A DNA stretch of 64,000 nucleotides. It comes from Escherichia coli. Its GTDB lineage: Bacteria > Pseudomonadota > Gammaproteobacteria > Enterobacterales > Enterobacteriaceae. Where the stretch lies: NCBI RefSeq assembly GCF_030013595.1, contig NZ_CP122768.1; one strand, written 5' to 3'. Positions 2,811-6,209 of the stretch are shown here, piece by piece. Every line of letters starts with the position of its first letter. Positions within the stretch are counted from its first letter, which is position 1. The position numbers and the translations under genes are program-made. Under the pieces are notes generated by a model that was not told the origin of the DNA, did no database searches, and worked only from the letters and a program-made list of their open reading frames with translations.

Positions 2811-5800
2811 ATGAGTAAAGGCAGCAGTAAGGGGCATACCCCGCGCGAAGCGAAGGACAACCTGAAATCATCCCAGATGCTGAGCGTGATAGACGCCATC
2901 AGTGAAGGGCCGATTGAAGGTCCGGTGGACGGATTAAAAAGTGTGCTGCTGAACAGTACGCCGGTGCTGGACAGTGAGGGGAATACCAATATCTCCGGTG
3001 TCACGGTGGTGTTCCGGGCAGGTGAGCAGGAGCAGACACCGCCGGAGGGATTTGAATCCTCCGGCTCCGAGACGGTGCTGGGTACGGAAGTGAAGTACGA
3101 CACGCCGATTACCCGGACCATCATGTCTGCAAACATCGACCGTCTGCGCTTTACCTTCGGCGTGCAGGCACTGGTGGAAACCACCTCAAAGGGGGACAGG
3201 AATCCATCGGAAGTTCGCCTGCTGGTTCAGATACAGCGTAATGGTGGCTGGGTGACGGAAAAAGACATCACCATTAAGGGCAAAACCACCTCACAGTATC
3301 TGGCCTCGGTGGTGGTGGATAACCTGCCGCTGCGCCCGTTCAGTATCCGGATGCGCAGGATGACGCCGGACAGCACCACAGACCAGTTGCAGAACAAAAC
3401 GCTCTGGTCGTCATACACCGAAATCATCGATGTGAAACAGTGCTACCCGAACACGGCTCTGGTCGGCGTACAGGTGGATTCGGAGCAGTTCGGCAGCCAG
3501 CAGGTGAGCCGTAATTATCATCTGCGCGGGCGCATTCTGCAGGTGCCGTCGAACTATAACCCGCAGACGCGGCAATACAGCGGTATCTGGGACGGAACGT
3601 TTAAGCCAGCATACAGCAACAACATGGCCTGGTGTCTGTGGGATATGCTGACCCACCCGCGCTACGGCATGGGGAAACGTCTTGGTGCGGCGGATGTGGA
3701 CAAATGGGCGCTGTACGTCATCGGCCAGAATTGCGACCAGTCGGTGCCGGATGGCTTTGGTGGCACGGAGCCGCGCATCACCTGTAACGCTTACCTGACC
3801 ACACAGCGTAAGGCGTGGGATGTGCTCAGTGATTTCTGCTCGGCGATGCGCTGTATGCCGGTATGGAACGGGCAGACGCTGACGTTCGTGCAGGACCGGG
3901 CGTCGGATAAGGTGTGGACCTATAACCGCAGTAATGTGGTGATGCCGGATGATGGCGCGCCGTTCCGCTACAGCTTCAGCGCCCTGAAGGACCGTCATAA
4001 TGCCGTTGAGGTGAACTGGATTGACCCGAATAACGGCTGGGAGACGGCGACAGAGCTTGTGGAGGATACGCAGGCCATTGTCCGTTACGGTCGTAACGTC
4101 ACGAAGATGGATGCCTTTGGCTGTACCAGCCGGGGGCAGGCACACCGCGCCGGGCTGTGGCTGATTAAAACGGAGCTGCTGGAGACGCAGACCGTGGACT
4201 TCAGCGTGGGCGCAGAAGGGCTTCGCCATGTACCGGGCGATGTCATTGAAATCTGTGATGATGACTATGCGGGGATCAGCACCGGCGGGCGTGTGCTGGC
4301 GGTGAACAGCCAGACCCGGACGCTGACGCTCGACCGTGAAATCACGCTGCCATCCTCCGGTACCACGCTGATAAGCCTGGTTGACGGAAGTGGCAATCCG
4401 GTCAGCGTGGAGGTTCAGTCCGTCACCGACGGCGTGAAGGTGAAAGTGAGCCGTGTTCCTGACGGCGTTGCCGGATACAGCGTGTGGGGGCTGAAGCTGC
4501 CGACGCTGCGCCAGCGCCTGTTCCGCTGTGTGAGTATCCGTGAGAACGACGACGGCACGTATGCCATCACTGCCGTGCAGCATGTACCGGAAAAAGAGGC
4601 CATCGTGGATAACGGGGCGTACTTTGACGGCGACCAGAGCGGCACGGTGAATGGTGTCACGCCGCCAGCGGTGCAGCACCTGACAGCCGAAGTCACCGCA
4701 GACAGCGGGGAATATCAGGTGCTGGCGCGCTGGGACACGCCGAAGGTGGTGAAGGGCGTGAGCTTCCTGCTCCGTCTGACCGTAACAGCGGATGACGGCA
4801 GTGAGCGGCTGGTCAGCACGGCCCGGACGACGGAAACCACATACCGCTTCAGGCAGCTGGCGCCGGGGAACTACAGGCTGACAGTCCGGGCGGTAAATGC
4901 ATGGGGACAGCAGGGCGATCCTGCATCGGTATCGTTCCGGATTGCCGCACCGGCAGCGCCGTCGCGGATTGAGCTGACGCCGGGCTATTTTCAGATAACC
5001 GCCACGCCGCATCTTGCGGTTTATGATCCGACGGTACAGTTTGAGTTCTGGTTCTCGGAAAAGCGGATTACCGATATCAGGCAGGTTGAAACCACAGCCC
5101 GCTATCTTGGCACGGCGCTGTACTGGATAGCCGCCAGTATCAATATTAAGCCGGGCCATGATTATTATTTTTACGTTCGCAGTGTGAACACAGTCGGCAA
5201 ATCGACATTCGTGGAGGCCGTCGGTCGGGCGAGCGATGATGCCGAAGGTTACCTGGATTTTTTCAAAGGCCTGATAACCGAATCCCATCTCGGTAAAGAG
5301 CTGCTGGAAAAAGTCGACCTGACGGAGGATAACGCCAGCAGACTGGATGAGTTTTCGAAAGAGTGGAAAGACGCCAACGATAAGTGGAATGCCATGTGGG
5401 GCGTCAAAATTGAGCAGACCAAAGACGGCAAACATTATGTCGCGGGTATTGGCCTCAGCATGGAGGACACGGAGGAAGGCAAACTGAGCCAGTTTCTGGT
5501 TGCCGCCAATCGTATCGCGTTTATTGACCCAGCAAACGGGAATGAAACGCCGATGTTTGTGGCGCAGGGCAACCAGATATTCATGAACGACGTGTTCCTG
5601 AAACGCCTGACGGCCCCCACCATTACCAGCGGTGGCAGTCCTCCGGTATTTTCCCTGACATCAGACGGAAAGCTGACCGCTAAAAATGCGGATATCAGTG
5701 GCAGTGTGAATGCGAACTCCGGGACGCTCAACAACGTCACGATTAATGAGAACTGTCAGATTAAGGGGAAACTGTCAGCCAACCAGATTGAAGGCGATAT

Positions 5801-6209
5801 TGTCAAAACGGTCAGCAAGTCTTTCCCCCGCACGAGCACTTATGCCAGCGGCAGCATCACGGTAAGAATCAGTGATGATCAGAAGTTTGACCGGCAGGTC
5901 ATGATACCGCCAGTGTTATTCCGCGGTGGTAAGCATGAGAATTTCAACAGTAATAACCAACAGTCATACTGGTATTCAACCTGCCGGTTAAGAGTGACCC
6001 GCAATGGTCAGGAGATTTTTAATCAGTCCACGACGGATGCTCAGGGCGTATTTTCCTCAGTTATAGATATGCCTGCCGGACAGGGGACACTGACACTGAC
6101 ATTCACCGTATCTTCATCAGGAGCGAATAACTGGACACCAGCAACCAGTATCAGCGATCTGCTGGTTGTGGTGATGAAGAAATCCACAGCAGGTATCAGT
6201 ATCAGCTGA
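2811..6209 (+). CDS. J: Host specificity protein J (central tail fibre / tip attachment protein)
   Basis: 1132 aa, same length as lambda J; N-terminal ~980 aa closely lambda-like ([20 protein letters not shown]...), C-terminal ~150 aa divergent. Confidence 0.9.

Follow-up and report, generated by a model that had tools for sequence, protein, structure and literature searches.

The J gene is a mosaic

The stretch of Escherichia coli DNA studied here (contig NZ_CP122768.1 of RefSeq assembly GCF_030013595.1; all 64,000 nt of it are called the window below) begins within the tail genes of a prophage. The genes run from the end of the tape-measure gene (H) through M, L, K, I and J, the last of which encodes the tip attachment or central tail fibre protein, and on to lom, stf and tfa. 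Because ssrA and smpB come after tfa, the J region was assigned to the right-hand end of a prophage that has ssrA as its integration site (Table 1). The J open reading frame (ORF) is intact; it comprises 1132 codons and a stop, and its translation contains no internal stops. Very probably its product is a functional-looking tip protein of the lambda family, the last ~160 residues of which have been exchanged by homologous recombination for an OmpC-binding cassette of the A8 type.

A preliminary description of the region had reported an ORF of exactly 1132 aa, a near-match to lambda J over the first ~980 residues and a substantially different end of ~150 residues, and the comparison with lambda bears this out. 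Lambda J (P03749; NC_001416 15505-18903) is also 1132 aa long, and BLASTP found 1009/1136 identities over the whole protein. In ungapped 50-residue blocks, identity to lambda was 88-100% up to residue 950 and 78% in residues 951-1000, and then collapsed. Codon counts gave 34 amino-acid differences over residues 1-973 (96.5% identity), with 106 further codons differing only synonymously. Over residues 975-1132 a gapped pairwise alignment gave 70/158 identities (44%), so that high identity to lambda does not extend over the final 150 residues. The divergent end carries insertions and deletions (indels) of -4, +5 and -1; because these cancel (net zero), the two proteins are equal in length. At the nucleotide level, identity to lambda switches sharply within J, from ~95% to ~50%, and given so sharp a switch a chance explanation of the divergence is unneeded.

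Membership of the lambda gpJ family is clear from three observations. Pfam detected, above curated cut-offs and in this order, FNIII-A_GpJ (PF24801), Phage-tail_3 (PF13550), Ig_J (PF24421), Ig_J_second (PF24489), Phage_Tail_Tip (PF09327) and Ig_GpJ_C (PF12421), the last spanning residues 1009-1132. This is the complete series of hub domains, two fibronectin type III (FNIII)/immunoglobulin (Ig) domains, tail-tip fibre and C-terminal Ig-like receptor-binding domain (names of the body domains after Ge & Wang 2024, PMC11101478). The body is 96.5% identical to that of lambda, and the gene stands in the tail-tip cluster H-M-L-K-I-J, followed by lom, stf and tfa. The exact 1132-aa protein is already present in NCBI, on 19 contigs, where it is annotated as host specificity protein J of E. 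coli, and the 90%-identity cluster that contains it has 25,550 members. An antisense ORF of 674 aa (3411-5435, minus strand) lies wholly within J; it was dismissed as no more, most likely, than the kind of ORF that a GC-rich coding strand with strong bias commonly produces, our one reason being its location in a conserved gene.

The position of the switch was determined from an alignment of the window J gene to its counterparts in the phages lambda, Perceval, Turner, 4A7, Stx2-1717, VT1-Sakai and phi330 and in E. coli ETEC1732, whose prophage is syntenic; identity was scored per 100 nt. Up to J nt ~2870, the window gene is close to lambda, Perceval and Turner (89-100%) and also to 4A7 and ETEC1732 (mostly 90-100% over all five), and it is distant from phi330, Stx2-1717 and Sakai, whose J is of the Pankowvirus type (52-96%). 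From nt ~2920 on, identity is 98-100% to phi330 and 95-100% to Turner; the values are 44-69% for lambda and 41-73% for Perceval. The final phi330-specific mismatch upstream is J nt 2871. The initial lambda-specific mismatch downstream is nt 2921 (window position 5731), where the divergent block has its first amino-acid change, N974 (S974 in lambda). Because the parent-specific mismatches stop at the first of these positions and resume at the second, the crossover was placed between them, at residues 958-974, in a conserved 16-residue motif. The interval matches both lambda-type and phi330/A8-type parents, save for one base (J nt 2910) that differs from phi330. The preliminary description had placed the onset of divergence accurately in its wording, from NVTINENC onward, but the coordinate it gave, 5763 (residue 985), lies ~32 nt inside the block. 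The GC content is 0.478 in the cassette vs 0.543 in the matching stretch of lambda.

The alignment thus directly reveals a mosaic gene. One receptor-binding cassette is found on two very different J bodies, and one J body (window/ETEC1732, Perceval, lambda) bears different cassettes, which is classic modular exchange. The two bodies are those of the window and of vB_EcoS_phi330 (PV189401), a Stx2a-converting siphophage; the side-fibre region of phi330 is different and short, unlike the window stf.

A further irregularity was seen inside the otherwise lambda-like body, at J nt 2201-2500 (window 5011-5310). Identity to lambda falls to 89-90% over nt 2201-2400, where identity to the J genes of Stx2-1717 and VT1-Sakai is 89-95%, well above the usual figure for those phages, and identity to Turner is 98-100% over nt 2201-2500. 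These values suggest a smaller second recombination patch in the body.

The receptor-binding cassette and its probable receptor

Over residues 975-1132, the J protein of the window is 98.7% identical to phi330 and 97.5% identical to each of A8 and Turner. A sequence search of PDB with residues 901-1132 retrieved 9wca and 9wcb ('A8 gpJ 713') at E=2.7e-146, and the lambda J entries 8xcj and 8iyk at ~1e-80. The first two carry the titles 'Closed state of A8 gpJ 713 central tail fiber' (9wca) and 'Open state of A8 gpJ 713 central tail fiber with OmpC G17 from E. coli EDL933' (9wcb), both with a release date of 2026-01-28; a query with K-12 OmpC found that 9wcb also holds chains named 'Outer membrane porin C'. 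A publication describing the two entries was not found in a literature search. Structure prediction led to the same relatives: with an AlphaFold2 model of residues 951-1132 (mean predicted local distance difference test score, pLDDT, 77.5), the top Foldseek matches in PDB were 9wcb and 9wca at 98% identity, followed by the lambda fibre (8xck, 8xcj) at 49-50%. The A8 DNA given in the supplement of PMC11338833 aligns to window positions 5696-6209 with a handful of true single-nucleotide polymorphisms (SNPs) and text-extraction gaps.

The receptor of this type of cassette has been studied in two systems. Brödel et al. (Nature 2024; PMC11338833) built a chimera of lambda gpJ by fusing it, at residue 964, to A8, a natural J C-terminus from an E. 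coli prophage; the chimera works through OmpC and needs no LamB. A lamB-less recipient served to find gpJ variants using another receptor, and the A8 chimeras deliver DNA to it (PMC11338833). A8 and 1A2 were assayed in a lamB ompC double-deficient strain with 23 plasmid-borne OmpC variants, and delivery was efficient in 21 of the 23; A8 was functional with OmpC of both MG1655 and EDL933, and 1A2 was efficient only with that of EDL933 (PMC11338833). The A8 chimera and the window J both join a lambda-type body to the cassette in the same conserved stretch; they differ in that the A8 junction is engineered and that of the window is natural, and in that the A8 body is lambda itself and the window body, from a natural relative, departs from lambda at 34 positions. 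In the case of phi330, the ompC mutant was the only one not lysed among 54 Keio outer-membrane-protein mutants, and plaques were restored by Plac-ompC (PMC12502783).

An AlphaFold3 model places the phi330 hairpin E953-S962 inside the OmpC barrel and A1015-P1020 on the rim (PMC12502783). Numbering in the window J is offset by 90 residues from the annotated 1042-aa phi330 protein, and the equivalent loops are E1043-S1052 and A1105-P1110 (ANNWTP). Both predicted contact hairpins are identical to those of A8 and phi330. The first is also the same in Turner, and lambda has a 6-residue deletion and unrelated sequence in its place. The window protein differs from phi330 and E. coli AR436 at S1015 and A1111 (T there), and from A8 and Turner by four substitutions (S1009N, T1010S, S1015T, A1111T). 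At residue 1015 (SNP at window 5854) the window has S, and each of the nine J proteins aligned to it, that of lambda among them, has T, T1015 being invariant in all compared J classes. A1111 (SNP at window 6141), straight after the rim hairpin, is T in A8, phi330, Turner, 4A7, Stx2-1717 and AR436, and T1111 is kept in all compared ends of the A8, 4A7, Stx2-1717 and 1A2 types. The S1015 and A1111 changes are conservative; a functional effect is possible but unproven.

Lambda J (PDB 8xcj, 8xck, 8iyk) is the LamB-binding prototype, with which the window J shares its length, domain architecture and Ig-like receptor-binding fold. In lambda, the end of the gpJ fibre is made of three Ig-like receptor-binding domains; loops L1-L4 at their bottom enter LamB, spread and trigger tip opening (Ge & Wang 2024, PMC11101478). 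The A8 structures form the same closed/open pair, with OmpC as the partner. The divergent end of the window J does not fall with the lambda-type LamB-binding domain, a category that includes loops L1-L4: over residues ~975-1132 it shares 44% identity with lambda, and where the two hairpins predicted to contact OmpC align with lambda there are indels and re-modelled sequence. In view of its 97.5-98.7% identity to proteins of known receptor, we infer that this allele binds OmpC, where lambda J binds LamB. The preliminary description had proposed a different receptor or a LamB variant; the first option is supported and can be sharpened to OmpC, and the second is not.

The following sequence of events would account for these data. 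A crossover by homologous recombination in the conserved 16-residue stretch at the boundary of fibre and receptor-binding domain very probably brought in the new end. Three J chains, as in lambda, would assemble into the hub of the tail tip plus a central fibre with three terminal Ig-like receptor-binding domains, and the bottom loops of these domains would dock on a trimeric outer-membrane porin, which with A8-type loops would be OmpC and not LamB. Docking would then open the tip and lead to DNA ejection. The trimeric assembly and the receptor-triggered opening are assumed by analogy to the lambda and A8 structures (8xcj, 8xck, 9wca, 9wcb).

Exchanges of this kind have precedents. Phage 434 J is a lambdoid central fibre that uses OmpC, and it is the classic case of a J swap changing the receptor (PMC11101478, PMC12502783). 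By published description, it resembles the window J as a lambdoid central fibre with OmpC as its receptor (inferred for the window); its receptor-binding domain is reported to share only 35-40% identity with the phi330 domain and to have other contact loops (PMC12502783). The 1A2/VT1-Sakai-type end is another natural OmpC-using cassette at the same junction, 61% identical to the window over residues 975-1132. It is present in ETEC1732 (NZ_CP122823; J at locus positions 5804-9199), where the J body is almost identical to that of the window. The ETEC1732 element is the best syntenic ssrA prophage, 96.4% identical over 14 kb, and from the two J ends it follows that receptor-binding cassettes differ between near-identical prophages at the same site.

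Distribution of the cassette and prophage context

J ends fall into discrete identity classes, as seen in a tblastn search with residues 965-1132 against 50,697 phage records. At 95-99% identity to the window end there were 44 records, including many Stx1a/Stx2a long-tailed phages, Turner, 2H10, PhiR30_1, SPF_0923 and phi330. The 4A7 type (~81%) belongs to the 22 records at 80-90%, and 86 records at 60-80% include the Stx2-1717 type (~75%) and the VT1-Sakai/1A2 type (~62%). Below 60% lie 115 records, among them lambda, Perceval, mEp460 and Stx2c phages (46-50%). The A8-type cassette is common in E. coli: a 510-nt probe matched ~1,510 replicon records at >=95% identity in 5,426 complete genomes. 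E. coli AR436 (NZ_CP029111; J at locus positions 3113-6510) is among the closest complete-genome matches, at 99.4% over the 510 nt. In a literature search, no receptor data were found for the ECOR-derived PhiR phages, which, like the infant-gut phages 2H10 and 4A7, share J modules.

Table 1. Features of the prophage end and adjacent genes in the window; for M, L, K and I the basis also includes gene calls on the 100% identical contig DBKRDH010000009.1 (L011) and the annotation of the syntenic ETEC1732 prophage.
Feature	Position	Strand	Basis
End of tape-measure gene (H)	to ~424	+	gene calls on contig L011
M	402-758	+	gene calls on 100% identical contig; ETEC1732 synteny
L	758-1456	+	Pfam Phage_tail_L
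K	1462-2205	+	Pfam Prok-JAB and NLPC_P60
I	2103-2750	+	Pfam Lambda_tail_I
J, tip attachment/central tail fibre protein, intact	2811-6209	+	ORF list, translation; Pfam
Lambda-like J body, residues 1-957 (hub domains, two FNIII/Ig domains, helical shaft, most of beta-prism fibre)	2811-5681	+	89-100% nt identity to lambda per 100-nt block
Crossover interval, residues 958-974, in conserved 16-residue motif	5682-5730	+	flanking mismatches, J nt 2871 and 2921
A8-type receptor-binding cassette, residues 974-1132 and stop (last fibre turns, Ig-like receptor-binding domain)	5731-6209	+	alignment, PDB match, Pfam
Codon S1015, lineage-specific substitution	5853-5855	+	SNP at 5854
Loop E1043-S1052, equivalent to phi330 hairpin E953-S962, predicted to point into OmpC barrel	5937-5966	+	alignment; AlphaFold3 model in PMC12502783
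Loop A1105-P1110 (ANNWTP), equivalent to phi330 hairpin A1015-P1020, predicted OmpC-rim contact, then A1111	6123-6143	+	alignment; AlphaFold3 model in PMC12502783
Terminator-like hairpin and T-run between J and lom	6227-6256	+	8-pair stem, TTTTTATTGC tail; consensus match only
lom, Ail/Lom outer-membrane beta-barrel protein	6276-6875	+	Pfam Ail_Lom, E=6e-119
Terminator-like hairpin and T-run just after lom	6902-6933	+	consensus match only
stf, intact side tail fibre gene, 1119 aa from GTG start	6934-10293	+	Pfam phage_tail_N, Gp34_trimer, Collar
tfa, tail fibre assembly protein	10293-10877	+	Pfam Caudo_TAP
ssrA, transfer-messenger RNA (tag ANDENYALAA), by right prophage end	11396-11758	-	ARAGORN; synteny with ETEC1732 and contig L011
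smpB, after ssrA	11973-12455	-	synteny with ETEC1732 and contig L011

None of the 5,426 complete E. coli genomes contained an identical copy of the first 14 kb of the window, the best value being that of ETEC1732 (96.4%). A look-up of the exact protein led to draft contigs that match the window at 100% over 16 kb, among them DBKRDH010000009.1 (GCA_053634295.1), which does so at window positions 1-16000. Toward its upstream side this contig has HK97-type head genes, genes for the tail tube and chaperone, and a tape-measure gene that is intact. The prophage is mosaic at the level of modules as well, with a lambda-like tail tip and an HK97-type head, and is not a lambda relative throughout. Its morphogenetic module looks complete, as read from the structural genes; the regulatory half lies outside the data. 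Contig positions 1-7614, upstream of window position 1, encode a Peptidase_S78 prohead protease, a PF05065 capsid protein and an HK97-gp10-like protein.

Downstream of J, lom is flanked by terminator-like hairpins (consensus matches), which fits lom as a separately expressed moron. The side tail fibre gene stf is intact, in contrast to the frameshifted gene of lambda PaPa; the N-terminus of Stf is 81% identical to lambda orf-401, and its His-rich C-terminal tip (~9650-10293) is 68% identical, with indels, to lambda orf-314. Beyond the prophage, a tRNA-Glu gene (39264-39339, plus strand) lies in a stretch without long ORFs (~37200-43000), a sign that this more distant part of the chromosome may hold a ribosomal RNA operon.

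Alternative explanations and significance

Several observations weigh against a functional, OmpC-directed J. S1015 and A1111 set the allele apart from phi330, S1009 and T1010 are further differences from A8, and A1111 adjoins the predicted OmpC-rim hairpin. The OmpC dependence of phi330 was established for the whole phage, not for J alone (PMC12502783), and the A8 data come from transducing particles bearing a P2-derived side fibre (PMC11338833). The window holds the right prophage arm only, from which inducibility cannot be judged. Some close relatives have a frameshifted J, e.g., E. coli AR436, where the frameshift is annotated; some copies of that J type are therefore decaying.

It is unlikely, though worth considering, that J is a relic of a defective prophage and has lost its adsorption function. 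Many lambdoid prophages of E. coli are defective, the window covers only the right ~11 kb of the element, and J is frameshifted in a close relative, AR436. However, J, M, L, K, I, lom, stf and tfa are all intact, as are the head, tail tube and tape-measure genes upstream on the contig that matches the first 16 kb, and the 106 synonymous vs 34 non-synonymous codon differences between the J body and lambda are as expected under purifying selection. The prophage probably yields infectious particles.

An OmpC binder of altered specificity was also considered, in which T1015S and T1111A shift the accepted OmpC alleles or weaken binding and so give a host range unlike that of A8 and phi330. Such an effect is improbable. 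Residue 1111 does directly follow the predicted rim contact, both threonines are strongly kept (T1015 in all compared domains), and OmpC-allele specificity varies by domain type, as the contrast between A8 (MG1655 and EDL933) and 1A2 (efficiently EDL933 only) indicates. The changes from T to S and from T to A are conservative, however, the two predicted contact hairpins are unchanged, and occurrence of the exact protein on 19 contigs is a hint that the lineage is viable and not defective.

The side fibre adds a further aspect. Because the tip of Ur-lambda Stf, with which the window Stf tip shares 68% identity, binds OmpC, both adhesins of the prophage, J and Stf, may address this porin. Two OmpC-directed adhesins were deliberately avoided in the vectors of Brödel et al. 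(PMC11338833). There is a slim chance that T1015S and T1111A retune J to a particular OmpC allele and, together with an OmpC-binding Stf, make this a natural phage with both adhesins on one porin; if true, it would be a possible model for two-step recognition of, or competition for, one receptor.

The idea that LamB, or a LamB allele other than that of K-12, is still the receptor, so that only allele specificity has changed, was rejected as extremely improbable. In its favour, the fold is the same Ig-like receptor-binding domain as in lambda (PF12421; Foldseek 8xck, 8xcj) and LamB and OmpC are both trimeric beta-barrel porins. Against it, no more than 44% of residues 975-1132 agree with lambda, indels fall in the parts that align with the two hairpins predicted to contact OmpC, the near-identical A8 and phi330 proteins (97.5-98.7%) function without LamB and require OmpC (PMC11338833, PMC12502783), and the solved complex contains OmpC (9wcb).

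The exchange of the J end for an OmpC-binding cassette is real but ordinary, since swapping the J C-terminus is the textbook receptor change of lambdoid phages. The cassette itself is already known: engineered delivery vectors have carried it, its structure in complex with OmpC has been solved, the genetics of a natural Stx phage connect it to OmpC, it is widespread, and its exact sequence is deposited. The value of the finding lies in annotation. The J gene of the window, and the many E. coli prophage J genes with the same cassette, can be labelled as OmpC-targeting and not LamB-targeting, which aids the prediction of prophage host range, including that of long-tailed Stx phages.

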